A DNA stretch of 64,000 nucleotides from Candidatus Moraniibacteriota bacterium (GTDB lineage Bacteria; Patescibacteriota; Minisyncoccia; Moranbacterales; GCA-2747515). A program made the position numbers and the translations under genes. The stretch lies in NCBI GenBank assembly GCA_046116545.1, contig CP175956.1, positions 513,734-577,733 of the forward strand, read 5' to 3'. Numbering within the stretch: the first letter of the stretch is position 1; every line of letters begins with the position of its first letter. Below, in pieces: positions 3,438 to 23,290 of the stretch. The notes under the pieces are model-generated. The model worked only from the letters and a program-made list of their open reading frames with translations. It was not told the DNA's origin and did no database searches.

Positions 3438-4202
3438 CTATTTTGTTTTTGATTTTATTTCTTTACTATTCATCTTTTCTTTATATATAATATACCATTG
3501 TTGAGCAATCATGAAAACAGTTGATGTCAACCAGTACAAGGCAAGTCCAGAAGGAAATTTAATACCAATGAATAATGTCATAATAGGAACTATGAATAGC
3601 ATTTGTTTTTGCATGATAGTTGCAAAATCAGGAGCATCATCCTTTTTAGCAACCTCAGCTTTTTTATCTTCATTTGCTGCAGTTTTAGCTTGCATCATTT
3701 TTAATTGGTAGAACTGTGCAGCAGCTGTAATAACAGCTAGTAGTATACTTGGTTCAGCAAGGTTCATAATTCCTAGGAACATTCCATTGATAACTTCAGG
3801 AACAGGAATAAAAGAATAAAGATTTTCAGCATGTATTGTTAAAGCATCATTTTCAGCAAGATTGATAATAACACGATACATTGTTATGAAAATAATCATT
3901 TGTATAATAAGCGGCAAACAACCAGCTGCAGGGTTTATTTTGTGTTCTTTATATAGGGCCATTGTTTTTTTTGATAACTGTTCCTTGTCATCTTTGTATT
4001 TTTTTTGTAATTCTTTAATTTTAGGTTGCAATTCTTGCATTTCCTTCTGTGATTCAATTTGTTTTTTTGATAAAGGAACAAGTAATAATTTTATAGCAAT
4101 TGTCATAACAATTATAGCAATTCCAAAATCACCAAAAATGTCATAAAGACCAATAAGTATATTGTAAATAGGTTGATATATAAGTATAAATAAGATTTCC
4201 AT
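3438..4202 (-). CDS. yidC: Membrane protein insertase YidC/Oxa1 (short form)
   Basis: 254 aa multi-TM protein in the rnpA-yidC-jag context. Conserved YidC core helices (…LPLIIQMIIF…, …GLALYWLTSTVFMIAQQ…). Confidence 0.8.
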   Translation of the reverse strand: MEILFILIYQPIYNILIGLYDIFGDFGIAIIVMTIAIKLLLVPLSKKQIESQKEMQELQPKIKELQKKYKDDKEQLSKKTMALYKEHKINPAAGCLPLIIQMIIFITMYRVIINLAENDALTIHAENLYSFIPVPEVINGMFLGIMNLAEPSILLAVITAAAQFYQLKMMQAKTAANEDKKAEVAKKDDAPDFATIMQKQMLFIVPIMTLFIGIKFPSGLALYWLTSTVFMIAQQWYIIYKEKMNSKEIKSKTK

Positions 4203-5099: not shown

Positions 5100-6512
5100 G
5101 TGATGAATAATTCAGAATTGTGGCGTTCAGTTTTGGGGAACATTGAATTGTCTATATCAAAAGCAAATTTTAGCACTTGGTTTAAAAACACAGCAATTTT
5201 ATCTATTGAAAATAATCATGTTGTGGTGGGAGTGCCTAATGGTTTTGCAAAAGAATGGTTGGAGAATAAATATCAATCATATATACTTCAAGCCCTTCGC
5301 AAGGAAACACCAGAAATACATAGTATGAGTTGCGCTGTTTATAATCCGCAAGAGATAGATAATAAGGAAAAATCTAAAGAACAATCTGAGGGAGTTAAAA
5401 ATGACATACAATCTGAAACAAAGAAAATCTCTAGACAAGTTAGCATGCAAAATAATACGACTAGCTCTGATAATTTTACGAAAAATAATATAAGTTTAAA
5501 TTCTAGGTATACATTTGATAATTTCATAGTTGGTGAACACAATGAATTAGCAAAAGCGGCTTGTCATGCAGTTTGTGAAGATGTGGGTAGAATTTATAAT
5601 CCATTATTTATTTATGGAAAAGTGGGACTCGGTAAAACACATTTATTACAATCAATTGGAAACCATGTTCGAGCTGCAGATGCTTCAAAAAAAATTGTTT
5701 ACACAACATCGGAGAGATTTACAGCAGAACTTGTTAATTCTATTAAAAATAACAGAGCAGATAAATTTAAGGAAGAATATCAAAAAGTTGATTTACTTAT
5801 AATTGATGATGTTCAGTTTTTAGCAGGAAAAGAAAAAACACAACAAGAATTTTTTCATATTTTTAATTCTCTATATAACTTAAATAAGCAAATTGTAATT
5901 TCAAGCGACAGACCACCAAAATCTATAAGCACACTGGAAGATAGGTTGCGCTCACGATTTGAAGGAGGGATGATTGTTGATGTTAGTCAACCTGATTTAG
6001 AAACTCGTATCGCAATTCTACGTACCAAGGCTGTTGAAAGAGGTTTCTATCTAAGTGATGATGTATTGCGGTTTATGGCAGAAAATATTAAAAATAATAT
6101 TAGAGAATTGGAGGGAGCGTTAAATAGGGTTATGGCAATTTGTGAGTTATATAAAAAAGAGCCAACTCAGCAAATGGTGGAACAAGCGCTTAGTGAAATA
6201 ATAAAAAGTAATAAAAAAACAGGGGTTCAAAGTAAAAATGTACTGGAAGTAGTTTCAGAATTTTATGAAGTTGATAAAGAAGAGCTATTAAAAAAAGGAC
6301 GTAAAAAGGAAATTGTACGACCTCGTCAGATTGCAATGTATATTTTGCGAGAGGAGATGAACATGTCATATCCAGGGATTGGTAAATATTTTAGTGGACG
6401 TGATCACACAACAGCATTACATGCTGTTGAAAAAATAAAAAGGGAGATTAAAGAAGATGAAAAATTTAAAGATGAAGTTGGATTTTTGAGAGAAAAACTA
6501 TATACGGTATAA
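5100..6512 (+). CDS. dnaA: Chromosomal replication initiator DnaA
   Basis: 470 aa. AAA+ Walker A GKVGLGKTHLL, box VII, C-terminal DNA-binding helix-turn-helix (…RPRQIAMYILREEMN…HTT…). Confidence 0.95.
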   Translation: MMNNSELWRSVLGNIELSISKANFSTWFKNTAILSIENNHVVVGVPNGFAKEWLENKYQSYILQALRKETPEIHSMSCAVYNPQEIDNKEKSKEQSEGVKNDIQSETKKISRQVSMQNNTTSSDNFTKNNISLNSRYTFDNFIVGEHNELAKAACHAVCEDVGRIYNPLFIYGKVGLGKTHLLQSIGNHVRAADASKKIVYTTSERFTAELVNSIKNNRADKFKEEYQKVDLLIIDDVQFLAGKEKTQQEFFHIFNSLYNLNKQIVISSDRPPKSISTLEDRLRSRFEGGMIVDVSQPDLETRIAILRTKAVERGFYLSDDVLRFMAENIKNNIRELEGALNRVMAICELYKKEPTQQMVEQALSEIIKSNKKTGVQSKNVLEVVSEFYEVDKEELLKKGRKKEIVRPRQIAMYILREEMNMSYPGIGKYFSGRDHTTALHAVEKIKREIKEDEKFKDEVGFLREKLYTV

Positions 6513-6551: not shown

Positions 6552-7694
6552 ATGAAAGTAGTTTGCACATATGAAAATTTGAAGAATGCATTGCAAGAAA
6601 CAGAATTTGCAACAAGTAAAAGTGCTCAGTTATCTATTTTGAACAATATTTTAATAGAGACTGATGGAGGTCAGCTTTGTCTTTCGGCTACAAATTTGGA
6701 AATTGGAATTGTTAAAAAAATTCAAGCAAAAATTGATGAGCCAGGTAAAATTGTTGTATCCGCTAGTCTTCTGGGTAGTTTTTTAACAGCTTTAAGAGGA
6801 ACTGAGCATGTAAATATAAGTGTTGAAGGTCGTATTTTAACACTGGAAAGTGGAGCACATAAGGCAAAAATTAATGGTTATGATGTTGAGGACTTCCCGA
6901 TTATTCCTAGCAGCAATGAACAGGATATGATGGAATTATCATTACCTCAACTTAAAACAAGTATATCAAAGGTGTTAAACTTTACATCAAAAGCTGAGAC
7001 TAGGGTAGAGTTGACTGGTGTTTTCATGTCATTTGAAGAAGAATCGATTTGTTCTGTTGCAACAGATAGCTTTAGACTTGGGGAAATGTGTGTGCCATTT
7101 AAAGATTTGATAATTAATAAGGGAACAGGTAATGCTTTAACTGAAAATAATCAACAAATAATATTACCACAGCAATTGTGTGTATATATTAATAGACTCT
7201 CAGATGAACATAAGACAATTCAGTGTAGTATAGAGGAAAACCATTTGTTTTTAATTTGTGATGATCTATATATAACTGCGAGATTAATTGATGGAGCATA
7301 TCCTGACTATAAGCAAATTATACCAACTAGCTCAGTAACCAATGTAATTATAAAAAAAGATGCTTTATTGGAGGCTATGAAAGTGACAACTGTGTTTACA
7401 GGAAAAGAAAGCGGAGAAATACATTTTGATATAAATGAAGGAAAATTAAAAATCACAACAAGACAACAGGAAGTCGGTGAAAACACAACGGAATTAGATA
7501 TTGATTTAAAAGGGGATGCTCAAAATATTGTATTAAATCCTCGTTTTGTAATTGATGGTGTTGGTAAAATTGATGCCGAAAATATTAATATTGCAATAAA
7601 TGGAAATGCAGCGCCAGTTGTGTTTAGAGGTTTTGATAATGAGGAGCTTGATGAAAAGTATACTTATATAGTCATGCCAGTTAAGAGCGCATAA
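6552..7694 (+). CDS. dnaN: DNA polymerase III beta sliding clamp
   Basis: 380 aa immediately after dnaA. Three-domain clamp pattern. Confidence 0.9.
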   Translation: MKVVCTYENLKNALQETEFATSKSAQLSILNNILIETDGGQLCLSATNLEIGIVKKIQAKIDEPGKIVVSASLLGSFLTALRGTEHVNISVEGRILTLESGAHKAKINGYDVEDFPIIPSSNEQDMMELSLPQLKTSISKVLNFTSKAETRVELTGVFMSFEEESICSVATDSFRLGEMCVPFKDLIINKGTGNALTENNQQIILPQQLCVYINRLSDEHKTIQCSIEENHLFLICDDLYITARLIDGAYPDYKQIIPTSSVTNVIIKKDALLEAMKVTTVFTGKESGEIHFDINEGKLKITTRQQEVGENTTELDIDLKGDAQNIVLNPRFVIDGVGKIDAENINIAINGNAAPVVFRGFDNEELDEKYTYIVMPVKSA

Positions 7695-8082: not shown

Positions 8083-10770
8083 TTAATAAGCTACATCAAC
8101 TGTATTTTTAGCAGAGGCTGTATTTCCAGCATCATCAGTTAATTTAACTTCTATTTCAAGCGTTGAATTATTCTGGTCTTCGGGTATTTTATATTTATAA
8201 GTAGAATCTTTTGATTCATGAACTTTTTTACCCTTAACCCAATACTCTATTTTATCGATGTCATATTCAGTTTCTGGAGTTACTTTTATCGTGAGTGTAT
8301 CAGATTCAACTTTGCTTGGAACTGACAATGATATTTTTGCAGTATATTTTTCAAAATCATCCTTCTCGCAATCATCAGGTTCTTCGTCAAATATTATTTT
8401 GTCATCTTCTTCTTTCTTGTAATATTTTAGTACAGCTTTTTCCCAGTTTTTATACTGAGGATCATCTTTAGGATCATCTGGTCGTTCTCCTTGTGGATCA
8501 TCTTTAATTACAAAATATAAAATATTATGAACATCAGCAAAAATTCGTCTTTTCTTTTTGCTATCTGGACAGTATTTATTTGCTTTACAATACTCATCGT
8601 CATCGTCAGGAAGTTCACATACTTCTATTTTGTCCATAGCAGGTAATTCTCCATCCAAGATATCTTTATCTGTTTTATTTTCATCTTTATCATATTTTGG
8701 AAATTCTTTTCCAGATATTTCTGGATAAGCTTCACGTATAAAATCACGGAATATGGGTCCAGAGGCATTAGCTCCCACACCACCACTATTCATGGAGGAA
8801 TTGTCATTATTGCCACTCCAGACTCCAACAGCAACTTCTGGAGTATATCCCATGGTCCAAGCATCTCGATTTTCATTAGTTGTACCAGTTTTAGCAGCAA
8901 CTGGCCTATCATCAAATTTAAGAGGATTATTTGCACCAAATGCATCAACTCTATACTTATTTGTAGAAAGTATGTGTGACAGCATTCCGACATATTTTTC
9001 ATCAACTATACGTTCACCCTCTGAATCAGTAGCTTCTTCAATGAGTTCACCATTTTTATCTTCTATCTTTAGAATGGATCTTTTAGTTTGGCGCACTCCA
9101 TTATTTGCAAATACAGAAAAGGCAGCCGTGTGATCAAGTAGTTTAACTTCGCCTCCACCAAGAACAAGTGAAAGTCCATATCTATCAGGATCATTCAAGC
9201 TTGTTATTCCAAGTTGTTTTGCAAATTCAATAACCTCTTTTGAATTTGCTAAGTAAAGAGTTTTTACAGCTGGTATATTTAGAGACATTCCAAGTGCTTC
9301 TTTCATTTTTAGAGGTCCCCGGAAGGTTCCATCATAATTTTGAGGACTATAATCATCTTCACCATTGCTAAAGTTTGTTTCAACATCATAAAGAATTGTT
9401 TCTGGTGTATAGCCTTTTTTAAATGCATAAATATAGGCATAAGGTTTAAATGATGAGCCTGGCTGTCTATCTCTTACAGAAACATTTACTTGTCCATCTA
9501 TTTCTTCATCAAAATAGTCTCTAGAGCCAACCATTGTCACTATGTCTCCATTCGAAGGATCAATAGCTGTTAGAGCAGAGTTTTCAGCGTTATATTTTTC
9601 TTTATTTTCAAAGGCTTTATCATGAACAATTCTTTCAGCTATCTGCTGTTTATCCCAATCAAGTGTTGTAATAACTGTTAAACCTTCTTTTTCCAAATAT
9701 TCATTTCCATACTTTTCTTCCAAAAAATCACGTACGTACATTACAAAATGGGGTGCTTTAATATTTTCTGTATTTTTAGTTAGTTTTGCAAAAACATCTT
9801 CTTTTTTTGCACTTTCAGCAGCCTCTGGGGAAATGTATCCAAGACTAACCATTTGATCCAAAGCGTATTCTTGGCGAGTTTTTAAGCGCTCTCTGTAGGA
9901 ACCATAAGGAGAATATTTTGAAGGTGCTTTTGGTAGGGAAGCTAAAATAGTCGCTTCATCTAGTGTGAGGTCTTTTGCATGTTTTCCGAAAAATGTTTGA
10001 GCAGCTGCTTCAATGCCATATGCATTTGAACCATATGGAATTTCATTTAGATACATGCCTATTATGTCATCTTTTGAAAATTTGAGTTCAATTTCAACGG
10101 CAAGTATTAATTCTTTTATTTTTCTAGAAAGGCTACGTTCATTTGTAAGGATGGAATTTTTTACAAACTGTTGCGTAATGGTAGAACCACCACGTCCGCC
10201 TCCAATGTTAAACACATTTGATAAAACAGCATTAGCAACACCTTTAACATCAAAACCAGGGTGATTATAAAAATTATGATCTTCTAGAGAGATTGTTGCT
10301 TGTTTTGCAACGAGTGGAATTTCATCATGAGGAATGATAGTTCGCTTTTCTTCACCATGAATATCATAAAGAAGTACAGTTCCAGTGCGGTCATAAATTT
10401 TTGTGCTTTCATCAATTGTGCGTGTATTAACTTTTCCTGGTTCAGGTAAATCTTTTGCAAAATAAGCAAAAATACCAATAGCAGCTAGTAGTCCAATAGC
10501 AAATAAAACAGCAAAAATTTTTGTAGCTAGTAATGCCCATTTCCTCCAACTATTTTCAGTGTTATTTTTTCTCTTGTTTTTCCTTTTCTTTTTTATCATA
10601 GAAGTTTGAGAAATATTAAGTTGCGTAGTATTTGGATAAACTTTAGATTGTTCTTTTTTGAATTTACCAAAAAACAATGCAGTTGATTTTTTGCATTTAG
10701 TTACTAATTTAGTTACCGAATTTACTCGAGGTTTTTTATCAAAATCACGAGGAGAATACATTTTTTTCAT
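8083..10770 (-). CDS. Class A penicillin-binding protein (glycosyltransferase + transpeptidase) with C-terminal Ig-like extension
   Basis: 895 aa. N-terminal TM. GT51 motifs (EDHNFYNHPG, GGSTITQQ). Transpeptidase SSFKP and KTGTT motifs. Confidence 0.85.
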   Translation of the reverse strand: MKKMYSPRDFDKKPRVNSVTKLVTKCKKSTALFFGKFKKEQSKVYPNTTQLNISQTSMIKKKRKNKRKNNTENSWRKWALLATKIFAVLFAIGLLAAIGIFAYFAKDLPEPGKVNTRTIDESTKIYDRTGTVLLYDIHGEEKRTIIPHDEIPLVAKQATISLEDHNFYNHPGFDVKGVANAVLSNVFNIGGGRGGSTITQQFVKNSILTNERSLSRKIKELILAVEIELKFSKDDIIGMYLNEIPYGSNAYGIEAAAQTFFGKHAKDLTLDEATILASLPKAPSKYSPYGSYRERLKTRQEYALDQMVSLGYISPEAAESAKKEDVFAKLTKNTENIKAPHFVMYVRDFLEEKYGNEYLEKEGLTVITTLDWDKQQIAERIVHDKAFENKEKYNAENSALTAIDPSNGDIVTMVGSRDYFDEEIDGQVNVSVRDRQPGSSFKPYAYIYAFKKGYTPETILYDVETNFSNGEDDYSPQNYDGTFRGPLKMKEALGMSLNIPAVKTLYLANSKEVIEFAKQLGITSLNDPDRYGLSLVLGGGEVKLLDHTAAFSVFANNGVRQTKRSILKIEDKNGELIEEATDSEGERIVDEKYVGMLSHILSTNKYRVDAFGANNPLKFDDRPVAAKTGTTNENRDAWTMGYTPEVAVGVWSGNNDNSSMNSGGVGANASGPIFRDFIREAYPEISGKEFPKYDKDENKTDKDILDGELPAMDKIEVCELPDDDDEYCKANKYCPDSKKKRRIFADVHNILYFVIKDDPQGERPDDPKDDPQYKNWEKAVLKYYKKEEDDKIIFDEEPDDCEKDDFEKYTAKISLSVPSKVESDTLTIKVTPETEYDIDKIEYWVKGKKVHESKDSTYKYKIPEDQNNSTLEIEVKLTDDAGNTASAKNTVDVAY

Positions 10771-10869: not shown

Positions 10870-11691
10870 TTAATTTTTTTCTGTAATATTTAGGGGGTGT
10901 CTTTTTGAAAGTAGATTGTCTAATAATACTTTTGCCAAATTAATATTGGTTTGTGTAAAATAACTATTGAATAAACATGTTCTATTTATTTCTATCAAAA
11001 AAAATCCAGATTCAGTAATTGCCAAATCTAGCCCAATAAGGTCAAAGGTGTTTTTTTTTATTATTTTTTGAGTAAAATTTAATATATCTAAGGATAATAT
11101 TTCTGAACCTATGACTTTAACTTTGGAGGTTAAAGTTTTTGAACTTTTAACAGTTGCCTCAGGTAATACCTCATTGCAAACTACATATATACGATATTCT
11201 TTTTGTATATGCATTTTATCTTGAATAATATATTTGTTTAAATTCATTTCATCCAATTCAGTTGAATCAAAGAAAATACCTTCAGCTCTACCAGAAATTC
11301 TTTCTTTTGTAATACGATTTTTATTATCTGCATCAGTGATCGAATTTAGTAATTGAGTTTTTGGCATAAAATCAGTAAATATTTGATATTGTAACCACTT
11401 ATCTTCAAAATAAATATCATCAATAGTTTTTAAATTATCAATAATATAGGCATCTTTTTTATTCTTTAATAAAATATCAAAAAGAGATGTTGCAGCATTT
11501 TTATCAAGAACACGGAAATGATATCCAAAGTATATGTAATCATAAGTGTTGTTAATTAATTTTTCTTTCAAATAAGTAGAGCTTTCATGAAAAAAATAAA
11601 AATCTATATCAACTACTGCTTGCATTTCTTGAGTTATATATAGAGGTAATGATAAATCGTTAATTCCAGTTATTAGCAGCATTTTTTTCAT
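10870..11691 (-). CDS. Divergent ATP-grasp-like ligase (hypothetical)
   Basis: 273 aa. C-terminal ...EYRIYVVCNEV...FDLIGLDLAITESGFFLIEINRTC... resembles the ATP-grasp C-domain (E/R..., GxD...lEvN). Last gene of the ATP-grasp block. Confidence 0.4.
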   Translation of the reverse strand: MKKMLLITGINDLSLPLYITQEMQAVVDIDFYFFHESSTYLKEKLINNTYDYIYFGYHFRVLDKNAATSLFDILLKNKKDAYIIDNLKTIDDIYFEDKWLQYQIFTDFMPKTQLLNSITDADNKNRITKERISGRAEGIFFDSTELDEMNLNKYIIQDKMHIQKEYRIYVVCNEVLPEATVKSSKTLTSKVKVIGSEILSLDILNFTQKIIKKNTFDLIGLDLAITESGFFLIEINRTCLFNSYFTQTNINLAKVLLDNLLSKRHPLNITEKN

Positions 11692-11837
11692 ATTGAGCTA
11701 TTTTAGTTATTTAAATAGGAAGTTAGTAGATATTATTGAATAAACTAGTGGGTTACTAGTATTTTTATGATTTCATTTGTAATATTCAATATTAAAAGTT
11801 TTTTGTAAATAAACTTTTTTAATTATAAATAATAGAA

Positions 11838-12788
11838 TTAAGATGAAAGTGTTTTTTTAAATAATTCTATAATAGCTGTATAAACCCGTTCTCTTTCCTC
11901 GAATTGTTTTTCAGTAAAAAATAAACCAGGCATACTATTTAATTCAATTAGCCAAGGCTTTTGATTTTCATCAAACATTAAATCTATTGTATATATTTTA
12001 TTTTTAAATGTAGAGAGTGTATTTTGTACATCAGTAACTAATGTGTTAACACTGGTAGGCAATTGTTCATTTTGTAGTATCTTCATTGAACCGCCCTGGG
12101 ATAAATTAGCAAGGAAAGATCCTTTTTTAGGAATTCTTATGTAACTATAAATCAAGTCATTTTCTATAAAAACGAGTCGCAAATCATGTACAGAATCTGT
12201 AATCCCAGTTATTCCATTAGTGCTGTCTATAAATTCTTGTGCCAAGATTGGAAAGGGTAGTTCAACATTATCGATTTCATTTTTTTGTAAAATATATACA
12301 TTTTTACCTCCACTATCTGAAGATGTTTTTAAAACAACCTTTTCAGTTTTAATGCTTTGAAGGATGCTTTTTAAATCAGTAATATTTAAAGCCTTATAGT
12401 GTTTTTTAGTGTGTTGTGGAAAAAGTAAGCTTGTAAATAATTTATTATCTATAAGATTTGTAAATTCAACATCATTTATAAGGGGAAATATTTCATTGAG
12501 TGATGATTTAAATAAATCAGTTTCAGATTTTGAGCTAGTTTTATCATAAATAAGATCTGGTTTTATATTATAATCACGTATCCAAGAGCCATTTTTATAT
12601 GTCCAAACATATAAAAAAATATTATTTTTATTATCATACCATTTATAAGAAGCTCTATATAATTGAATTCCATGTTGGTTAGCTAATTCATATAGATATT
12701 CATAACAAAGAGTATACCCACTAGTCATATCTGCAAAAGCTGGTCCATTCCAATCCTTTTCACCAAATAATATTAGTACTTTTTTCAT
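11838..12788 (-). CDS. ATP-grasp ligase (RimK/YheCD-like), paralog 2
   Basis: 316 aa. ...ILAQEFIDS...HDLRLVFIEND..YSYIRIPKKGSFLANLSQGGSMKIL...YTIDLMFDENQKPWLIELNSMPGL. Paralogous to 12793..13734. Confidence 0.65.
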   Translation of the reverse strand: MKKVLILFGEKDWNGPAFADMTSGYTLCYEYLYELANQHGIQLYRASYKWYDNKNNIFLYVWTYKNGSWIRDYNIKPDLIYDKTSSKSETDLFKSSLNEIFPLINDVEFTNLIDNKLFTSLLFPQHTKKHYKALNITDLKSILQSIKTEKVVLKTSSDSGGKNVYILQKNEIDNVELPFPILAQEFIDSTNGITGITDSVHDLRLVFIENDLIYSYIRIPKKGSFLANLSQGGSMKILQNEQLPTSVNTLVTDVQNTLSTFKNKIYTIDLMFDENQKPWLIELNSMPGLFFTEKQFEERERVYTAIIELFKKTLSS

Positions 12789-12792
12789 AGTT

Positions 12793-13734
12793 TTATTTAA
12801 AAAATGTTAATAAATTTTCATAAAATTCACTTTGATAAGGTGCTTCACTTTGTTCTAATGTTAATCCAGGTCTAGAATTCATTTCTATAAGCCATAAGTT
12901 ATTATCATTATCAAACATACAATCAATAGCATATATTTTATTTGTAGCATCAATATTTTCTACATTTTGTATAATTTTATTGATAAATTTGTTGATGTCA
13001 TTATTTTGTAAAAGTTCTTTTATTGGAATTACTTTTAGTGTAGCGCCTGTTGATACATTTGCAATACGAGTGTCTTTTTTTGGTATTCGAGCAAATGCGT
13101 AAAAAGGTGTTTGATTTCTAACTATAACTCGGATATCATGATATCCATCAATAAATTCATTCTTCGCTTTTGATGAATCCATAAATTCCTGAGCTAAAAT
13201 AGGGAATATATTGTTTGATATAATATCATTGGCGACAGCTTCTTTTTTTGAAATAAAAATACCAGAACCACCAGATTGACTTAGGGGTTTCACAATAATA
13301 TCAGATGTTTGTAGTGCTATAATTTTAGTTACTTCACTAGGCATATTGATAACAATTGTTTTTGCAGAAAATTCTTCAAAAAAATCAAATGTAAGTGATT
13401 TATTACTTAGGATTTTACTTAATGTCAAATTATTATAAAAAGTGTAATCAGTTGCTATTAATTGCCTAGTCAGCATCTCGCTGGAGTTAATGTAATAGGG
13501 CGATTTGTCATAGATTACATCTGGTGTTATGTTTTTTTTCCAAAGCCAGTTATCATTAATAAAAAATTGTGCTTGTGTAAATGAATTACTTTGAGTATCA
13601 TAATATGATATCGGTGCACGACACAGTATTATATTATTTTTTGCAAAGTATGTATATAAGGCGCTATAACCCAGAGGATCCTTTGTTGGAGATTTAGAAG
13701 GTTCTCCACCAAAAAGAATTAGTATTGTTTGCAT
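12793..13734 (-). CDS. ATP-grasp ligase (RimK/YheCD-like), paralog 1
   Basis: 313 aa. ...KPLSQSGGSGIF...ILAQEFMDS...HDIRVIVRN..FYAFARIPKKDTRIANVSTGATLKVI...YAIDCMFDNDNNLWLIEMNSRPGL. Confidence 0.65.
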   Translation of the reverse strand: MQTILILFGGEPSKSPTKDPLGYSALYTYFAKNNIILCRAPISYYDTQSNSFTQAQFFINDNWLWKKNITPDVIYDKSPYYINSSEMLTRQLIATDYTFYNNLTLSKILSNKSLTFDFFEEFSAKTIVINMPSEVTKIIALQTSDIIVKPLSQSGGSGIFISKKEAVANDIISNNIFPILAQEFMDSSKAKNEFIDGYHDIRVIVRNQTPFYAFARIPKKDTRIANVSTGATLKVIPIKELLQNNDINKFINKIIQNVENIDATNKIYAIDCMFDNDNNLWLIEMNSRPGLTLEQSEAPYQSEFYENLLTFFK

Positions 13735-13751
13735 ATTATTTTTTAAGTTTT

Positions 13752-15155
13752 TTACTTACTAACATCAACTAAAAATTGATGTAGATTTCGTTTGCCAATA
13801 ATTATATCATATTTCATATCACTTCTATCAATAATGTTTACTTGAGCAGGAATTATTTTTTTATCCATTGTAAATTTAGTCTTTACAATAGGGCGAATTG
13901 AGGAGCCACTTGATGCAAAAATTACTGCCACGTCAACTAAATCAGGGATTTTATTTTCAGCTAGAATAGCTTTTTTAATAGACTTTTCGTTTTTTGGAGT
14001 AATCTCGTATTTAGTTAAATCAATTTTATCAAATTCATTTATTACATGTTCAAATCCGAGTGATTTAGCAAGTTTTGTGTCTATTGATGTTGAATAAGCA
14101 CCAGTATCAATTTTTGCTTTTGTTTTAATCTCTGTATTATTTTTTCCGATAATTTTAATTTCTTCAATAGAGCCAATGACATTTTTACCAGACATTCCTT
14201 CAACCTCTTCTTCAATTTCACCACCAAAGAGATTTTTGCCAACAGCTGCTCCACGTATTGCAGATTTAATTTTTAGTCCTTCTACACGTTCAAGTCGACG
14301 TTTAAGTCCTGCCATATTTGCGACTTGGATAGAAAGTCCTGGTCGGGCATTAAGTTCAAGAAATACAGGTCCATTATCTCTATCAATTGCAACATCAGCA
14401 CCTAAAAAACCAAGTCCGGAGGCTTCTTGTGCTTTGATGGCGAGTATTAACATTTCATCCCAGTATGGAATTTTGATACCAGAAAGCAGTAAACGTGTTC
14501 CAGGTACATACTCTATAATTTTTGACTTTCCTTGTACGGCAGTTGTCGTTGTACCTCTAGCCATATCAATTCCAACACCAACACCACCTTGTTGTAAGTT
14601 TGCTTTACCTCCAGATTCTTTTGTGGGAAGTCGAAGCATTGCCATTACGGGTACTTTATTATATATAACAATACGAATATCTGGAATACCTTTATAGGCA
14701 TATGGACGAAACTCTTTTGATAATTTGAGACGTTCTTCAAAAAAAGCTATATCAGGGGTATTTGAAAGGGAATACTCACCATCTAAAATATGTCCTATAT
14801 GAGTTATCAAATCTTCTTTTGTGACTGTTTTGCCATTTCCTTTAATCCAGATGTCATCAGTTCCTTTTTTGCGACCATAAATAACTATAATACCATCACC
14901 ACCAAGACCTTTATTTGGTTTTATAACAAAACTTGGAGGTAGAATACTCCAATCAAAACTTTCTAATGTACGTTTAGAAGAAATTTGTGCAATAAGTCTT
15001 GGGACAGGGACGCCTGCTTTTTTGAGCATACGTTTCGAACGAATCTTGTCATCTGCAAGTCGCTTTGCTTTTTTAAGGTTGTGTGGGCGAATATATGTTA
15101 AATTTCGGGCATTCATCCCAAGTATGTTTTTGCTTGCGCGTATTGATTCAAACAT
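13752..15155 (-). CDS. ATP-grasp ligase (alpha-L-glutamate-ligase-related / ATPgrasp_ST-like) fused to C-terminal retropepsin-like aspartyl-protease domain
   Basis: 467 aa. N-terminal ILGMNARNLTYIRPHN motif, then an ATP-grasp core (...GGDGIIV...FEERL...DIRIVIY...RLPTKESGGKANLQQGGVGV...FLGADVAIDRDNGPVFLELNARPGL). C-terminal ~130 aa with KIDTGAYSTSID (D-T-G-A), compatible with a DUF785 / 'Zn_protease'-type retropepsin domain. Confidence 0.6.
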   Translation of the reverse strand: MFESIRASKNILGMNARNLTYIRPHNLKKAKRLADDKIRSKRMLKKAGVPVPRLIAQISSKRTLESFDWSILPPSFVIKPNKGLGGDGIIVIYGRKKGTDDIWIKGNGKTVTKEDLITHIGHILDGEYSLSNTPDIAFFEERLKLSKEFRPYAYKGIPDIRIVIYNKVPVMAMLRLPTKESGGKANLQQGGVGVGIDMARGTTTTAVQGKSKIIEYVPGTRLLLSGIKIPYWDEMLILAIKAQEASGLGFLGADVAIDRDNGPVFLELNARPGLSIQVANMAGLKRRLERVEGLKIKSAIRGAAVGKNLFGGEIEEEVEGMSGKNVIGSIEEIKIIGKNNTEIKTKAKIDTGAYSTSIDTKLAKSLGFEHVINEFDKIDLTKYEITPKNEKSIKKAILAENKIPDLVDVAVIFASSGSSIRPIVKTKFTMDKKIIPAQVNIIDRSDMKYDIIIGKRNLHQFLVDVSK

Positions 15156-15162
15156 GGGATTT

Positions 15163-15855
15163 TTATTTAATCTTATTTATAACATTGTGAAATCTTAGGT
15201 ACTCATTAAAACGAAGACCTGTCCATTTACCAATGAAAAGATTTATAGGAATAATTAATAAAACAGTAAGTGGGTGGACAAGTATAAGACTTATCATGTA
15301 TCTACCAATAGCAGTAGTTGGTGAAAGAATTGTATATCCAATAAGCGCTATAATTAGCGTTTCAACTGCTAATATAATTGCAGTTTTGTTTCCTTTTTCA
15401 ATTTGTACAGTAACAAATTTTTCAACAAGCATTATTATGATGATAATCGGGAAAATGGCAGTTGATGCAAAACCAGTCCTTCCAAAATATCCAGCAAGTG
15501 CAAGTGTTAAAAGGACGGAAAAGGATACTACAGTTAAGTTTATAGCAACTCTAGGAAGATAAAGTAAACGTAATTTTTTCAATACAAAACGCATACCCAT
15601 ACCAACACAAAGGACTATTGCATAAATAGCAACAGCATATTTAATATCCCAAAAGCTATCTTGTGCAATAAATACAAAAGCAATTGTAATAATAGATGGT
15701 GTATAAATACCAAATGCCTGTATACCAACTATTTGACGCAAAACAACAACGATTGTTATTACTATAGGAAATAACAATAGTAGAGTAATAGTATCTAGAT
15801 TAAGTTGTTGTGCGAGTAAAAATTGTATAATAGGACTGAAGTCAGTTACATTCAT
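15163..15855 (-). CDS. 7-TM integral membrane protein (7TM_transglut-like, no transglutaminase domain)
   Basis: 230 aa with seven hydrophobic helices. 8-nt gap to the ATP-grasp/protease fusion gene. Matches the 7TM partner of ATPgrasp_ST systems by context and topology only. Confidence 0.45.
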   Translation of the reverse strand: MNVTDFSPIIQFLLAQQLNLDTITLLLLFPIVITIVVVLRQIVGIQAFGIYTPSIITIAFVFIAQDSFWDIKYAVAIYAIVLCVGMGMRFVLKKLRLLYLPRVAINLTVVSFSVLLTLALAGYFGRTGFASTAIFPIIIIIMLVEKFVTVQIEKGNKTAIILAVETLIIALIGYTILSPTTAIGRYMISLILVHPLTVLLIIPINLFIGKWTGLRFNEYLRFHNVINKIK

Positions 15856-15882: not shown

Positions 15883-16383
15883 CTATTTTGTAATTGTATT
15901 TAAATATTTTCTAGAATTAATGTGACATAGTGCTACAGCAAGTGCATCAGCTGTGTCATCGGGTTTTGGAATACTCTTTAATTTTAACACACTTTTTATC
16001 ATTTTTTGCATTTGCGTTTTGTCAGCTCGGCCATAACCAGTAAGTGATTGTTTTATCTGAAGCGGTGTGTATTCTGCAATTTTTAAACCATCTCTAAAGC
16101 AAGTATTCATAATGACACCACGGGCCTGTGCAACACTTATGACAGTTTTTGCATTTTTAAAATAAAACAAGTCTTCAACTGCAGCTTCAGCAGGTTTGTA
16201 TTTTTTTAAAATAGCAAGTACGTTATCAGTAATTTCTGATAATCTAACAACATCAGACAGTTCTTTTGCTGTCTCGATGTGACCGTATGCAATAACATTA
16301 TTTTTTGTTCCACTATCATTACAGTCAATTATACCCCAACCAACAATAGCAGTACCAGGATCAATCCCAAGTATTCTAATCAT
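15883..16383 (-). CDS. ruvC: Holliday junction resolvase RuvC
   Basis: 166 aa. MIRILGIDPGTAIVGWGII... RNase H-like RuvC start. Confidence 0.85.
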   Translation of the reverse strand: MIRILGIDPGTAIVGWGIIDCNDSGTKNNVIAYGHIETAKELSDVVRLSEITDNVLAILKKYKPAEAAVEDLFYFKNAKTVISVAQARGVIMNTCFRDGLKIAEYTPLQIKQSLTGYGRADKTQMQKMIKSVLKLKSIPKPDDTADALAVALCHINSRKYLNTITK

Positions 16384-16416
16384 ATTTTTATCTTAGAATG
16401 TAGTATTTTAGCACTT

Positions 16417-17124
16417 TTAGGCAACATTGTCAAAGATTTCATTAACATCATCTAGCTCTTCAAGTATTTCGTAAAGATCATCATATTTTTCTGTATCTTC
16501 AGTATTTAGAGTTACTTGTTGTGTTGGATTATATATTAATTTTGCTTCATTTATGGATTCAGCTTCTTTTTCAATTCCTTTTAAGACATTATGCAGACTT
16601 GTAGGACTAGTTATTATTGTTAGATTTGAGTTTTCTTCAAATACATCTTCAGCACCAGCCTCTATAGCAAGTAATTCAGCAGTTTCTATGTCTTTTGGTG
16701 TAATTGATATATAGCCAACAAAATCAAATTGAAAACTTACGCTGCCACTAGGCACAAATTTACCATTATTTTTTTTGAGTGCAGTTTTAACGTCTGTTAA
16801 AGCACGGTTAGTATTATCAGTTGCGCATGTGATAATCATCATTGCCCCACCAGGACCCATACCTTCATAGGTGACTTCTTCAATTCTAGCACTATCATCA
16901 CCAGAGCCTTTTTTCATAGCACGTTCGATATTGTCTTTTGGCATATTAGCTTTTTTTGCTTGGTCTATAGCTAATTTTAAAGCACTATTCATTTCTGGAT
17001 CATTATCTCCATTTTGTACAGCTACCATGATAGCTTTCGCAATACGAGAGAAAACTTTAGATCGTTTAGCATCTGTAACACCTTTTTTATGTTTAATTGT
17101 TGACCATTTACTATGTCCTGACAT
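16417..17124 (-). CDS. yebC: YebC/PmpR family DNA-binding transcriptional regulator
   Basis: 235 aa. MSGHSKWSTIKHKKG... canonical N-terminus. Confidence 0.9.
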   Translation of the reverse strand: MSGHSKWSTIKHKKGVTDAKRSKVFSRIAKAIMVAVQNGDNDPEMNSALKLAIDQAKKANMPKDNIERAMKKGSGDDSARIEEVTYEGMGPGGAMMIITCATDNTNRALTDVKTALKKNNGKFVPSGSVSFQFDFVGYISITPKDIETAELLAIEAGAEDVFEENSNLTIITSPTSLHNVLKGIEKEAESINEAKLIYNPTQQVTLNTEDTEKYDDLYEILEELDDVNEIFDNVA

Positions 17125-18390: not shown

Positions 18391-18424
18391 AAACCAACAA
18401 AGATAAATCTTTGTTGGTTTTTAT
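18391..18424. terminator. Bidirectional rho-independent terminator
   Basis: aaaccaacaaagataaatctttgttggttttt hairpin between convergent genes. Confidence 0.6.
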
Positions 18425-21384
18425 TTACATAAGTCAAATTTTTGTGAAGTGGGTGTTGTAAAAAGATAGGGCTTTTCACATGGTTGGGTTGGTAAATCTA
18501 TTTGTGTAGGCGTATAAGAATATGCCAAGACTTGATTTAATTTCAATGTTTCAGAGAAAGATTGGGCTATTAGAATAGTTTTATGCAAAAGAGAGTTTAT
18601 ATTTTGCAGAAGTGTTACAAACAAGTTTGAATTTGTCTGTACAATATCTCGTGAAGTATTGTTGGAAGAATTGTAAACAGCATTTATGGCGACTTTATTT
18701 TCCAAAATTTGTTGAGAAAACATTTTTTCATTTTTAATTGCTTGAGAAATAATTTGTTGAGTTTGATGTTGTTTTTCTAAATTAACTGGAATGGTCCATG
18801 TCCAGATACCATCAATTTTTTCAAATGATGAATTGTCTTGTATAGATATGTCTTTATGACCATATTTTTGTTTATCGGCAACGGATCCATTTGGACGACG
18901 AATTTCTATAACACCTGTTTTGTTAGGGAGACTGATAGCTGTATATTTTTTGGTTATTTTTTTAGTTTTTCCAGGCTTTAATATTAATTTGTCATAAATT
19001 GGATGATTCACTAAAGTTTTTTCTTTTACTCCTGTGGCGATGCTCCAATTTTGGAGATTAATTTTTTCTTTACTTTCATTTTTTATAATAATATATTCAA
19101 CACCACTATCTTTTCCGCTAGGATTTGGAACTATTTTTGTAATTTCAATTTTGTGTTTGGGGTATTTTTTGACGGTAACAGTGAATTTTTTTATTATTTC
19201 TTCACTTTTATCTTGAATTCGTAGGTTGCCATGATAAGTACCAGTTTTTGTGTATCTGTGTCGAGTTTTCCATAAATAACTTTTACGACCATCACCAAAG
19301 TCCCAACGAACTTTTAATTTCTCGCTATCTTTGTCAGTAGCTTTTGTTTTAAAATTAGCATAAACATTTTTATAAGAATTTTTATCTATATCAAATTTTG
19401 TAATGGTTGGAAGATTATTAAAAACATTCTTTTTGCTAGGTGTTAAATATTTGCTCCATCGCCAACTTTTTGAATCAGTATTGTAATTGTAAGAAATATC
19501 TTCTCGGGATGATTTATAAGATATTGAGCTTACTATTTTTTCGTTTGGTGCTGTGAGTGAGACGGTTTCATTGCTATTATTTAGTGCAAAAGAAAAATTT
19601 TTCCTGTAAATTGTGAAAAATGATTTTGGTTCAATGTACTGTTTAGTTGGAAATGTGTAGGTGCCAGTCTTGGAAGAATCTTTTAGCATCCAATTTTTAA
19701 GGTTAATTTTAATGTTGTTTGGATTATAAATTTCTATAAATTCATCAGTTTTTTCAACACCACTTGGATTTGGAAGTATCTCATTTAATAATAATTTAGG
19801 ATATTTTATAGTGCGTGGATCAATTGCATTTTTTGTACCAGGAGTTGGTTCTGCATTATACCAATATTCAGCATAATTTATAGACTTGCCTTTTTGAGAA
19901 TCATTGTATTTGATTTGTGAAGTAATGGAACAGTTAGGTGCAATGAGTGAAATATTATCTCCAGAATTATTTAGAGTGAACCTGAAATGGTCTTTTGTAA
20001 GTTTGATATAAAGTAAGGTTGTGTCTGGGTTTTTGTTTTCTAATGTTCCAGAAATTGTTGAGGAATCTGTTAATTTCCAACCATCTAAAGATACTTTGTC
20101 AGGATTGTAAAGTTCAATAAATTCTTCTGTTTCTGTGCAATGGGGAGTATCTTTTTTGCAAGGATTAGGATAAATTTCATTTATACGAACAGTACTAGAT
20201 AAATTTGTAGGCAAATAATCACCAGGAAAAGGACATTTGTTTATATGAAAATCAGCTTTATTGTTGTCAGTGTCAATATATTTACCATCTTTTTTATTTC
20301 GCTCAATACTTTCATTTTTGTTTGGACTTTGAGTTGATGTTTCTTCATATAAACAAGTATTTCCGAAGCCAACTTTATCAATGATATTGTCGTTATCATC
20401 GTATAAAATAATCGTTGAATCATTAGTTATGGTAGCACTTTGACTAGAGAATGTAATACTATTAGTCCAAGCAGGCTTAGGATTATCCTTATGTGTGATT
20501 ATGAGATATTTGTGAGCTTCGATCACGCCAGTAAAAGCGCGTGAAGATATAAGATTTTTATCTTTTTTTATTTTATCACACTTATTTTTATCTGTTGTTC
20601 TAGTTATATTTCTTTTCAAACTATAACCATTGAGAATGATATTTTTATCAGTTGTATTATATAATTCTATGTATTCCTCATGATGTTTTGAGTTGGAGGC
20701 GGAAGTATCCAATAATATTTCAGTAATGAGGATAGTTTTTTCTATAATTGGAATATCTTCTAGTGGAATCTCAGATTTATTTTTTGTAAGAGGTTTTGTG
20801 ATAGTTTGTATAGTTTCTTTACTTGTACTTGTAGGTTCAAAATTTATGTCTGTATCACTAGCATCTTGTTTCATTGGAGGAGTTTCAGTATATGCCTCGA
20901 TAGAGTGCTCTGTAGAGATATCTTTTTGTTTAGGCAGGCTTTCTTTTGAAATAGATTCATTTTCAATAGTCTTTTCTTTTTCTTGTGATGTAGTAGATTC
21001 ATTTTGAGATGTGGAAATAGAGTCACAATCCGATTCTACTGTCTTTGTTTCAGATTTATCAGCAGTAATTTTTGTGGATTTGGAGGGTTTTTCATCTTTT
21101 GTAATCGATTTTTTATCTGTATCTTTTTTTGTAGTGGACAGACATGTCTGTCCACTACAGTTATCAACATCTTCTATGTCAGAAGTAGTTATGTCAGATT
21201 TGGATTTCTCACTATTTTTGGTAGAAATAGGCTTTGCATCAGTGGAGTTAGTGGTAGTCTCATCAAGAGAAAAAACACTATGTGAAAACAAAGAAAAAAG
21301 ACAAAATAATAATAAAATACCTTTAAGAAGTGTAGGGGATAATATGGTAAAAACTTTTTTCATACAAAAATAAGTTAGCAACAA
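18421..21384 (-). CDS. Large secreted surface protein with four lamin-tail-domain (LTD) repeats, a PKD domain and a Ser/Thr-rich low-complexity linker
   Basis: 987 aa. Signal peptide, then a long S/T/K/D/E-rich region. Repeated ...NEI(L/Y)PNP...(E/D)(F/Y)IE(I/L)YN(P/T)... (LTD) occurs four times. WDFGDGRKS...GTYHGNLRIQD is PKD-like. Confidence 0.7.
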   Translation of the reverse strand: MLLTYFCMKKVFTILSPTLLKGILLLFCLFSLFSHSVFSLDETTTNSTDAKPISTKNSEKSKSDITTSDIEDVDNCSGQTCLSTTKKDTDKKSITKDEKPSKSTKITADKSETKTVESDCDSISTSQNESTTSQEKEKTIENESISKESLPKQKDISTEHSIEAYTETPPMKQDASDTDINFEPTSTSKETIQTITKPLTKNKSEIPLEDIPIIEKTILITEILLDTSASNSKHHEEYIELYNTTDKNIILNGYSLKRNITRTTDKNKCDKIKKDKNLISSRAFTGVIEAHKYLIITHKDNPKPAWTNSITFSSQSATITNDSTIILYDDNDNIIDKVGFGNTCLYEETSTQSPNKNESIERNKKDGKYIDTDNNKADFHINKCPFPGDYLPTNLSSTVRINEIYPNPCKKDTPHCTETEEFIELYNPDKVSLDGWKLTDSSTISGTLENKNPDTTLLYIKLTKDHFRFTLNNSGDNISLIAPNCSITSQIKYNDSQKGKSINYAEYWYNAEPTPGTKNAIDPRTIKYPKLLLNEILPNPSGVEKTDEFIEIYNPNNIKINLKNWMLKDSSKTGTYTFPTKQYIEPKSFFTIYRKNFSFALNNSNETVSLTAPNEKIVSSISYKSSREDISYNYNTDSKSWRWSKYLTPSKKNVFNNLPTITKFDIDKNSYKNVYANFKTKATDKDSEKLKVRWDFGDGRKSYLWKTRHRYTKTGTYHGNLRIQDKSEEIIKKFTVTVKKYPKHKIEITKIVPNPSGKDSGVEYIIIKNESKEKINLQNWSIATGVKEKTLVNHPIYDKLILKPGKTKKITKKYTAISLPNKTGVIEIRRPNGSVADKQKYGHKDISIQDNSSFEKIDGIWTWTIPVNLEKQHQTQQIISQAIKNEKMFSQQILENKVAINAVYNSSNNTSRDIVQTNSNLFVTLLQNINSLLHKTILIAQSFSETLKLNQVLAYSYTPTQIDLPTQPCEKPYLFTTPTSQKFDLCK

Positions 21385-22034: not shown

Positions 22035-22262
22035 TTAGTAGTAAAGATTATTATTATAAAACAAATCATTAAATGGAACATTTAAAAACAGAATTACATT
22101 TGCGAGAACTAATGTAATAGTGACAACTATATAAACTGTTATTAAGGGTGTTGTGAATTTAGGATTTATGGAATATTTTTGTAGTCTAGTTATTATGAAA
22201 AAGCTAGCAAAAACAACTGCTAAAATAAACATAAAATAAAGTATAGCAAAGAGTACTAGCAT
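22035..22262 (-). CDS. Small membrane protein (hypothetical)
   Basis: 75 aa with two hydrophobic helices. Overlaps the ruvB stop. Confidence 0.35.
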
Positions 22263-23290
22263 AATTTTTTATTTAATTTTTCATAAGCGTATTCTGTAAC
22301 TACTCTACCACGAGGTGATCTAGCCAGGAAGCCTTGCTGCATTAGATATGGTTCATAGACATCCTCAATAGTTTGAACTTCTTCAGATAGAGCATTTGCA
22401 ATAGTAGAAACTCCTACAGGACCACCATCAAATTTATCTATAATTAGATTTAAGAATTCTCTGTCAGTTGGCTCTAACCCATGTTCGTCAATATCTAACA
22501 TGTCTAGAGTTTTATTAGCAACTATTTTATCAATTGAATCAATATCATGAACGTCAGCCCAATCCCGAGATCTCTTTAGAAGTCTATTTGCAATTCTAGG
22601 TGTTTGTCTGGCTGACCTTGCAATACAAGCTGCTCCCTCGGCGTCTATCTCACATTCTAGTATGGAAGCACTTCTTTTAATAATACTTTCTATATCATCT
22701 TGATTATAAAATTCTAATCTGTGAGTCACTCCAAACCGGTCTCTAAGTGGACCAGTAAGGGAGCCCATGCGTGTTGTTGCACCAATAAGCGTAAACTTAG
22801 GTAAATCAATTTGAAGAGCCTGAGCACTCGGTCCCTTTCCAACAACGAGGTCTAATTTGTGATCCTCCATAGCAGGATAAAGTACTTCTTCAACAGATTT
22901 ATTTAGTCTATGAATTTCATCTATAAATAACACGTCGCCATCTTGCATATTTGTGAGAATTGATCCAAGATCACCAACTCGTTCAATTGCTGGGCCAGAT
23001 GTTGTTTTAATATTTACGTTCATTTCTCTGGCAATGATATTAGCGAGTGTGGTTTTACCAAGTCCTGGGGGGCCATATAATAAAACATGTTCAAGTGGTT
23101 CGCCTCGTTTTTTTGCAGCAGCTAAAAATATTTTTAATTGTTTTTTGATTTTCTCTTGTCCAACATAATCTTCTAATTGTTGAGGTCTTAGAGTGTAATT
23201 AATGCTAAATTCACTAGAAGTTGATTCATCATCTAAATCTATTTTGTCATTTTGTACTTCTGGATCCTGCTCGTGAGTTATTAGTGTCAT
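22256..23290 (-). CDS. ruvB: Holliday junction branch-migration ATPase RuvB
   Basis: 344 aa. [18 protein letters not shown] Walker A and winged-helix C-terminus. Confidence 0.95.

Follow-up and report, generated by a model that had tools for sequence, protein, structure and literature searches.

Five co-oriented genes between ruvC and a penicillin-binding protein gene

We analysed a 64,000-nucleotide stretch of contig CP175956.1 from a Candidatus Moraniibacteriota bacterium (the window; G+C content ~30%), in which an earlier reading of the DNA, here called the original prediction, had singled out five genes as a candidate system for peptide ligation or protein modification. The five open reading frames (ORFs) are co-oriented on the minus strand at 10870-15855, between ruvC and the gene of a class A penicillin-binding protein (PBP1A). 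Gene 1 encodes a seven-transmembrane (7-TM) protein and gene 2 a fusion of an ATP-grasp ligase with a retropepsin-like domain. The other three, which we call G3, G4 and G5 (313, 316 and 273 amino acids), encode accessory ATP-grasps, that of G5 being a structure-based assignment. As described below, the locus consists of a fixed two-gene core, formed by genes 1 and 2, and a functionally linked, interchangeable periphery. All five reading frames were found with the coordinates and orientation originally given (Table 1). The intergenic gaps from ruvC through G5 are 27, 7, 17, 4 and 146 nt; the first had been reported correctly and the other four, as 8, 18, 5 and 147 nt, each one nucleotide too high, which is immaterial. 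Lying behind the longest gap, G5 may be transcribed separately. A promoter and terminator scan returned counts no higher than those in shuffled sequence and was thus uninformative on operon structure.

Table 1. Features of the locus and its immediate flanks, in window coordinates.
Feature	Position	Strand	Description
Core gene 1	15163..15855	-	230 aa; 7-TM membrane protein, RloB-like, without extracytoplasmic transglutaminase domain
Core gene 2	13752..15155	-	467 aa; ATPgrasp_ST (RloC-type) ligase with C-terminal retropepsin-like protease, single polypeptide
Gene 2, ATPgrasp_ST ligase domain	14280..15107	-	aa 17-292; PF14397, E = 4e-67
Gene 2, N-terminal motif ILGMNARNLTYIRPHN	nt 15078-15125	-	aa 11-26; invariant
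Gene 2, acidic linker FGGEIEEEVEGMSG	14187..14228	-	translation; between ligase and protease
Gene 2, retropepsin-like domain	13758..14180	-	aa 326-466; RloA/RimB-type, PF05618
Gene 2, catalytic K-I-D-T-G-A	nt 14097-14114	-	translation
G3, accessory ligase cassette 1	12793..13734	-	313 aa; RimK/GshB-like ATP-grasp
G4, accessory ligase cassette 2	11838..12788	-	316 aa; RimK-like ATP-grasp; NCBI name 'RimK family alpha-L-glutamate ligase'
G5, accessory ligase cassette 3	10870..11691	-	273 aa; predicted divergent ATP-grasp, rare family
Class A penicillin-binding protein	8083..10770	-	transglycosylase and transpeptidase; downstream neighbour, context; system membership not shown
yebC and ruvC	15883..17124	-	upstream neighbours, context; RuvC = 16383..15883

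A ligase and a retropepsin-like protease in one polypeptide

The N-terminal part of the gene 2 product is recognized by the ATPgrasp_ST model PF14397 (226.6 bits against a cut-off of 31.4, residues 17-292) and aligns with positions 9-313 of the 317 in TIGR02291 (E = 3e-87), its 292.5 bits lying slightly below the equivalog cut-off of 314.2. Invariant residues of this domain include K79, E140, R161, D254, E267 and N269. We modelled the protein with AlphaFold2, obtaining a predicted local distance difference test score (pLDDT) of 83 for the whole chain and ~90 for the beta-rich C-terminal domain. When the whole model was submitted to Foldseek, the ATP-grasp part came closest to RimK, cyanophycin synthetase and ArgX; among the matches listed there were only ATP-grasps, and the retropepsin fold was thus not seen by this route. 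The N-terminal ILGMNxRN motif is invariant, yet its pLDDT in the monomer model is below 50, a combination that would fit a docking element.

The C-terminal domain matches PF05618 (42 bits against a cut-off of 27, residues 326-466), and its best NCBIfam protease match is RloA3 (E = 6e-11). Single-sequence phmmer searches with the fusion, G3 and G5 against the PDB sequences gave no matches, and only a profile search succeeded: a profile built from 15 fusions matched, over residues 326-468, the RloA-orthologue crystal structures 9g59 (E = 5e-6) and 9g58 and the Legionella structure 2pma. Across 71 sequences K348, D350, T351, G352, A353, R421, P422, R444 and G454 are invariant, and these include DTGA and, within IIGKRNL, G454, candidates for the two signatures of clan AA. 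The Pfam match, the profile matches to RloA and 2pma and the invariant catalytic residues together indicate that the C-terminal domain is retropepsin-like. With matches to PF14397, TIGR02291 and PF05618, the original description of an ATP-grasp carrying a C-terminal D-T-G-A retropepsin-like module was borne out.

One of the closest known systems is RloABC of Pseudomonas aeruginosa, which comprises the secreted retropepsin RloA, the 7-TM protein RloB with its inactive transglutaminase domain and the cytoplasmic ATP-grasp RloC (Lormand et al., mBio 2025, PMC12239564). RloA cuts runs of at least eight Glu; its residues K46, D48, R114 and R137 line a poly-Glu channel and are needed for cleavage, R114 and R137 most strongly, and the substitutions R114A and R137A abolish complementation (PMC12239564). 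In the fusion, K348, D350, R421 and R444 align with the K-x-D-T-G-A, R-P-V and D-R motifs of 9g59, and the spacing between the two arginines is 23 residues in both proteins. From these motifs and this spacing we infer that K348, D350, R421 and R444 correspond to K46, D48, R114 and R137 of RloA.

Ligase and protease are joined by an acidic linker of the pattern FGGE-I-E-E-E-V-E-x-x-S-G-K, in which F310, G311, G312, E315, E316, E319, S322 and G323 are invariant in the 71 sequences and residues 315-322 have a pLDDT below 50. The linker is retained in most fusions down to 37% identity (range 37-48%) and is missing from stand-alone RloC-like proteins. Possible roles are those of a pseudo-substrate, a site of self-processing or a mere structural strand. 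A self-cleavage site of the retroviral-polyprotein kind within FGGEIEEEVE was considered and found unsupported: the sequence offers three contiguous Glu, against at least 5-6 for RimB and at least eight for RloA.

A 7-TM partner without a transglutaminase domain

Gene 1 matches PF14402 (7TM_transglut, positions 55-247) with 91 bits against a cut-off of 25. The NCBIfam RloB model aligns with it over model positions 312-506 of 508 only (76 bits against a cut-off of 900). Since this match is confined to the C-terminal 7TM half, gene 1 lacks the transglutaminase part, in agreement with the original prediction. For comparison of neighbourhoods we scanned one genome per species and collected 80 related Moranbacteria loci. 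Apart from one truncated call of 50 amino acids, the gene 1 orthologues in these loci are 214-257 amino acids long, and therefore none carries a transglutaminase domain. In other lineages a transglutaminase or PKD domain is found at the N-terminal end of the 7TM protein.

Four motifs are conserved in gene 1: RQ..G..AFGIYTP, LYLPR, EKF...QIE.G and GKW.GLR..E..RF. By the positive-inside rule the N-terminus is predicted to lie outside, and all four motifs would fall in cytoplasmic loops.

The core pair is invariant and the adjoining island variable

In all 80 loci gene 1 immediately precedes the fusion gene on the same strand, and the core is 57-92% identical across these species-level loci. That so small a core is highly conserved where genomes are minimal speaks for an important function. 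The flanks are also stable: RuvC is found within 1.5 kb upstream in 66 of 71 loci, and PBP1A follows the fusion gene in 59 of the 61 loci with enough flank (in 56 of them on the same strand). PBP1A is likewise present in two more distant loci, L087 and L091, of the candidate phyla radiation (CPR).

The fusion is the normal form of the protein in Moranbacteria and this part of the CPR and no peculiarity of the window. More than 7000 homologues were found at E < 1e-10; nearly all of the best 120 are full-length fusions of 455-490 amino acids, mostly about 467-470, 63-100% identical to that of the window, and their named sources are Moranbacteria or Parcubacteria. A HMMER scan of 1.84 billion cluster representatives (50% identity) returned 434 clusters at E < 1e-30, many of them full-length fusions at 37-51% identity. 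The single polypeptide had been held to set this locus apart; it is instead standard in the group, and an active hybrid of the same general kind, RimBK, is on record. Many loci with the typical Moranbacteria arrangement (L006, L007, L014, L025, L027 and others, and L076) stand under odd record titles, namely 'uncultured Bdellovibrionales', 'Micavibrio sp.', 'Pseudobdellovibrionaceae' and 'Bathyarchaeia archaeon'; mislabelling or mis-binning is the probable cause.

The fusion gene and PBP1A are separated by 396-6299 bp, and the stretch between them is an island of variable content. Of the 66 complete islands, 63 have one or more RimK-like ATP-grasps (none in 3, one in 20, two in 25 and three in 18), and these ATP-grasps fall into ~20 subfamilies at 38% identity. 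The window, in which the rare 273-residue type comes after two ATP-grasps of the commonest subfamily, is one variant among many. Other island genes encode MATCAP/DUF1704 peptidases or a distant MATCAP-like HExxH family (19 loci together), YdjC (14 loci), GT1 or GT4 glycosyltransferases (13), GNAT proteins (5), a probable further ATP-grasp (5), Mur ligases (3) and a GT2 glycosyltransferase (1). The original prediction had treated the five genes as one system and would have been refuted by a lack of co-conservation in relatives. The neighbourhood comparison showed co-conservation of the core pair; the accessory ligases number zero to three and are swapped between close relatives, and homologues of G5 also stand alone elsewhere, so that this refuting outcome was partly observed.

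Accessory ATP-grasps

G3 matches PF02955 (44.7 bits) and the RimK model PF08443 (43 bits against a cut-off of 21), and G4 matches PF08443 with 46 bits. The two are 31% identical to each other (E = 2e-49), so that the prediction of a paralogous RimK-like pair holds. They reach the level of the Pfam RimK-like domain only, scoring 37 bits against the 143.4 required by rimK_fam. The best relative of G3 among the 80 loci is 55% identical. G4 has 280 homologues, whose source-given names are all Moranbacteria, Patescibacteria or uncultured bacterium; both of the two that we looked up sit in the same type of locus.

G5 falls below every Pfam cut-off, and a pairwise comparison with G4 showed no similarity. 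Its weak matches to the R2K models PF18299 and PF14243 (E = 0.0055 and 0.021) are below the cut-offs, with 17 bits for R2K_2 against 26.2, and a few of its homologues carry precomputed R2K_2 or R2K_3 matches. An AlphaFold2 model based on an 18-sequence family reached a pLDDT of 90. Its Foldseek matches include ArgX, LysX, PsnB, MdnC, RimK and Ddl, the E-values lying between 1e-13 and 1e-11 and the template modelling (TM) scores at ~0.7 (best 0.73). Invariant in the family are K129, R131, E165, R167, D222, E234, N236 and R237, which supply the Lys, Arg and Glu of an ATP-grasp and its D..E.N pattern. Judged from the model and these residues, G5 is an ATP-grasp, as its earlier designation as a fourth, divergent member had it. 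The domain assignments of the original prediction were thus all upheld.

Nineteen homologues of G5 are detectable. Orthologues within the island occur in the nearest relatives only, and homologues at 36-52% identity stand alone in unrelated neighbourhoods. One of them, 36% identical and located in L083 (4912-7027), lies directly upstream of a MATCAP peptidase gene and overlaps it, in an otherwise unrelated context; the two may form an independent minimal ligase-peptidase pair.

Cassette turnover within a conserved frame

The closest relative of the window, L089, is 92% identical in the fusion, 93% in the 7-TM protein, 84% in PBP1A, 81% in RuvC and 84% in G5. The ATP-grasps at its G3 and G4 positions are at most 34% identical to those of the window, and for one of them no similarity is detectable. 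The best matches to G4 (70-71%) and to G3 (55%) are found in genomes whose fusion is only 66-70% identical. By these sequence comparisons, the turnover of G3 and G4 is best described as non-orthologous replacement within a conserved frame.

More distant loci keep the same layout with core fusions only 43-48% identical to that of the window. The order in L087 is YebC, RuvC, PKD-PKD-7TM, a fusion of ATPgrasp_ST, retropepsin and MATCAP, two ATP-grasps, MATCAP, a further ATP-grasp and PBP1A. L085 has YebC, RuvC, GalT, 7TM, a fusion of ATPgrasp_ST, retropepsin and ATP-grasp, a RimK-like protein, DUF3541, a second RimK-like protein, RuvA and RuvB. Rosetta-stone fusions join the types of protein found in the islands to the core polypeptide itself: MATCAP (P0151 and others, in dozens of clusters of ~790 amino acids), YdjC (P0141) and a second ATP-grasp (P0168). 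The layout of the distant loci, these fusions and the locations of the G4 homologues are our reasons for assigning the island genes to the same system as the core.

If only the 7TM protein and the fusion formed a system, the three ATP-grasps would be unrelated genes gathered by chance at a recombination-prone spot near the replication origin. Such clustering would accommodate the replacement of cassettes between genomes whose flanking genes are 81-93% identical, the solitary G5 homologues, the 146-nt gap before G5 and the proximity of dnaA and dnaN, which adjoin PBP1A. It does not account for the finding that 63 of 66 islands contain one or more ATP-grasps from a single broad family, for the persistence of the pattern in distant CPR loci, for the fusion of a second ATP-grasp to the core in P0168 and of MATCAP and YdjC in others, or for the finding that both G4 homologues looked up lie in this type of locus. 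We consider chance clustering very improbable.

Turnover of this kind also recalls defence islands, and the ligase cassettes could in principle be hypervariable components of a conflict, defence or toxin system that modify invader or self proteins. The weak matches of G5 relatives to models of the R2K clade of ATP-grasps, a clade linked to conflict systems, point the same way. A PADLOC search with the five proteins, however, gave no match at E <= 0.01, the core is universal at a fixed chromosomal position among housekeeping genes, and the island is free of mobile-element genes. This explanation we regard as extremely improbable.

Two further observations concern the distant loci. A DUF3541 (PF12060) gene lies within the island in two divergent lineages (L085, 10672-11607; L091, 6949-7860). 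Fusions of ~790 amino acids that combine ATPgrasp_ST, with or without retropepsin, and MATCAP occur in other CPR (L087, 1870-5876; P0151, P0159, P0167 and others), and in L087 the PKD-PKD-7TM protein takes the place of the bare 7TM protein. In many of these ATPgrasp_ST-MATCAP fusions the DTGA motif is not detectable, so that the ligase appears to have been recurrently fused to one type of peptidase or the other.

Relation to the Rlo and Rim systems

The families discussed here were reportedly first described in the amidoligase paper of Iyer et al. (2009). We found no paper describing the CPR form, and the literature yielded nothing relevant on ATP-grasp or RimK proteins of Moranbacteria or Patescibacteria or on MATCAP together with ATP-grasp in bacteria.

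The window shares with RloABC a ligase of the ATPgrasp_ST/TIGR02291 type, a PF14402 7-TM protein and a PF05618 retropepsin in adjacent co-oriented genes, and the catalytic and Glu-coordinating lysine and arginine residues of RloA are conserved in the fusion. It differs in that the protease, instead of being secreted as a stand-alone protein with a signal peptide, makes up the C-terminal third of a cytoplasmic ligase polypeptide, and in that the periplasmic inactive transglutaminase domain of RloB is missing from the 7-TM protein. It further has a variable island with one to three RimK-like ligases and, in relatives, MATCAP, glycosyltransferase and YdjC genes. [quoted passage not shown] The RloA1, RloA2 and RloA3 models gave the fusion 25-42 bits against cut-offs of 210-280.

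With RimK-RimB and the RimBK hybrid the fusion has in common the combination, on separate chains or on one, of a cytoplasmic ATP-grasp ligase and a retropepsin-like endopeptidase. RimK is the enzyme that makes poly-alpha-Glu, and it also glutamylates RpsF. RimB needs a minimum of 5-6 Glu in a row for cleavage and stimulates synthesis by RimK, and RimBK is active with its protease at the N-terminus (Little et al., J Biol Chem 2025, PMC11957791). In our fusion the protease is C-terminal and the ligase is of the ATPgrasp_ST/RloC family (48.9 bits against 143.4 for rimK_fam, 14.4 against 331 for PRK10446), and the RimB model NF052261 gave 14 bits against 200. Rim, moreover, has no 7-TM partner, and its target RpsF is not implicated in the window. 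The links drawn in the original prediction to ATPgrasp_ST/7TM/retropepsin systems and to RimK-RimB are correct by shared families; strict membership of RloABC or RimK/RimB fails, all scores lying below the RloA, RloB, RimK and RimB equivalog cut-offs.

Two other comparisons are informative. The tyrosination-detyrosination cycle of tubulin tyrosine ligase (TTL) and MATCAP and bacterial pairs of an ATP-grasp with DUF1704 (MATCAP, TIGR02421) combine, like 19 of the 66 islands, an ATP-grasp ligase with a metallopeptidase by which C-terminal residues are removed. A MATCAP gene is absent from the window, however, and nothing in it corresponds to the tubulin substrate. In structure G5 is best matched by LysX and ArgX of the LysW amino-group carrier system and by PsnB and MdnC, macrocyclases of ribosomally synthesized and post-translationally modified peptides (RiPPs). 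All of these, and RimK, act on peptide or protein carboxylates, LysW being a carrier protein. The identity of G5 to them is only 12-15%, and a search in and around the island turned up neither a LysW-like carrier gene nor one for a precursor peptide.

An alternative reading is a cytoplasmic protein-tail cycle, in which the ligases would extend the C-terminus of a specific protein, the retropepsin or MATCAP would remove the extension and the 7-TM protein would be only a regulator or anchor, much as RimK-RimB acts on ribosomal protein S6 or TTL-MATCAP on tubulin. The retropepsin would be cytoplasmic like RimB, being fused to an ATP-using domain without a signal peptide. An active RimBK hybrid exists, MATCAP-type carboxypeptidases recur in the islands and as fusions, and the structural neighbours ArgX/LysX and RimK modify protein C-termini. 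Against such a cycle, all members stay below the family cut-offs of RimK (14 bits against 331) and RimB (14 bits against 200), the 7-TM partner is invariant, the sugar-handling enzymes and the Mur ligase of the islands do not fit pure protein tagging, and no candidate target was identified. We therefore rate it as doubtful.

A proposed module for building and trimming an acidic peptide

Our preferred explanation, of moderate confidence, is that the locus represents an Rlo-type peptide ligase-protease module in the form it takes in Moranbacteria and the CPR, which would build and trim an acidic peptide at the membrane. The cytoplasmic ATPgrasp_ST domain would dock on the conserved cytoplasmic loops of the 7-TM protein and use ATP to add amino acids, most likely glutamate, to a carboxylate acceptor, giving a short acidic peptide. 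The fused retropepsin, active as a dimer, would cut acidic runs and so limit, release or recycle the chain; this role is proposed by analogy with the action of RimB on the RimK product and of RloA on the RloB/RloC product. Further residues could be attached or taken off by the one to three accessory RimK/GshB-like ligases or, elsewhere, by the MATCAP-type carboxypeptidases, glycosyltransferases, YdjC, GNAT or Mur ligase of other strains, and the product would therefore differ between strains.

The product would most likely end on or in the cell envelope. This destination is suggested by the synteny with PBP1A (59 of 61 loci), by the GT1, GT2, YdjC and Mur-ligase genes of the islands and by the phenotypes of rlo mutants, which affect cell shape and the response to beta-lactams, the operon also influencing tolerance of hypo-osmotic stress and biofilm formation (PMC12239564). 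A further hint comes from the N-terminal extracytoplasmic domains on the 7TM proteins of other lineages (PKD in L087, transglutaminase in RloB). Deletion of rloB or rloC suppresses the rloA1-3 triple deletion, and the authors suspect a link to peptidoglycan homeostasis (PMC12239564).

A specific form of this envelope reading would make the accessory ATP-grasps ligases of peptidoglycan side chains or cross-bridges, comparable to the D-aspartate ligase Asl(fm) or to Ddl-type enzymes and working with PBP1A, while the core pair tunes wall synthesis. Cross-bridge composition varies between strains in Gram-positive bacteria, PBP1A is adjacent across divergent lineages, some islands hold a Mur ligase, and in L091 a FemAB gene lies just past the island. 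The proposal made for Rlo would also agree (PMC12239564). However, the Ddl models stay far below their cut-offs (~13-21 bits against 243), L085 has the system without PBP1A, and the adjacency may be inherited synteny. We consider this form distinctly unlikely.

Several points weigh against the acidic-peptide module itself. The added amino acid and the acceptor are not evident from sequence, and the roles proposed for ligase and protease are modelled on homologues outside the CPR. In the intergenic gaps of the islands at 81 loci we found no conserved Glu-rich ORF and no small precursor or carrier ORF; a few clusters of small ORFs in these gaps lie antisense to the start of PBP1A. The protease would be cytoplasmic, unlike the secreted RloA, which places trimming at a different site from that in the Rlo model. 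The adjacency of PBP1A may be the inherited gene order of one lineage, with L085 as a case of the system without it. The accessory ligases cannot be essential to the core, because they are highly variable and three complete islands have none, and G5 homologues occur in other contexts. The general idea of ribosome-independent ligation and trimming at the membrane, put forward in the original prediction, fits the RloA, RimB, RimK and RloBC homologues by analogy; stepwise action of the ligases on one product is not supported as stated there, nor is any particular ligated substance.

If the acidic-peptide module is taken further, the 7-TM protein and the ligase-protease fusion might be a platform shared across Moranbacteria and related CPR for a combinatorial non-ribosomal assembly line, whose lineage-exchanged cassettes of ATP-grasps, peptidases and sugar enzymes yield a strain-specific peptide or glycopeptide decoration of the envelope beside PBP1A. 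We offer this extension tentatively and think it unlikely. Were it true, these episymbiotic bacteria might rely on such a surface 'bar code' when attaching to hosts or evading phages, and an envelope decoration would reveal the product of the Rlo system. The CPR variant also amounts to a natural dissection of Rlo, with the protease fused and hence cytoplasmic and the transglutaminase domain apparently dispensable. The recurrent fusions and neighbours (MATCAP, ATP-grasps, YdjC, glycosyltransferases and PBP1A) point to an envelope-tied peptide with a processed C-terminus. In the turnover of its cassettes the locus offers a clear example of how CPR genomes diversify locally, and identification of the product would open both the CPR system and Rlo to biochemical tests.

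Neighbouring genes

Directly beyond PBP1A lie the genes of YidC (3438-4202, minus strand), DnaA (5100-6512, plus strand) and DnaN (6552-7694, plus strand). Because dnaA and dnaN follow PBP1A directly, the cluster adjoins the presumed replication origin. The relatives L089 and L090 also have dnaN and dnaA as neighbours.

On the other side, RuvB is encoded at 22256-23290 (minus strand), upstream of yebC and several genes away from it. The block that begins with 7TM and, in L091, extends to PBP1A separates ruvC from ruvA/ruvB in L085 and L091, an order that suggests insertion into a yebC-ruvCAB operon. At 18421-21384 (minus strand) the window encodes a probable surface protein of 987 residues, which combines four lamin-tail domains (LTD) with a PKD domain and is also found upstream of yebC in L090 and L091. 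A 1007-residue protein at 23712-26735 (minus strand) contains two T2SSE (PilB/GspE-type) ATPase stretches and an MshEN domain and looks like a tandem-duplicated secretion or pilus ATPase.

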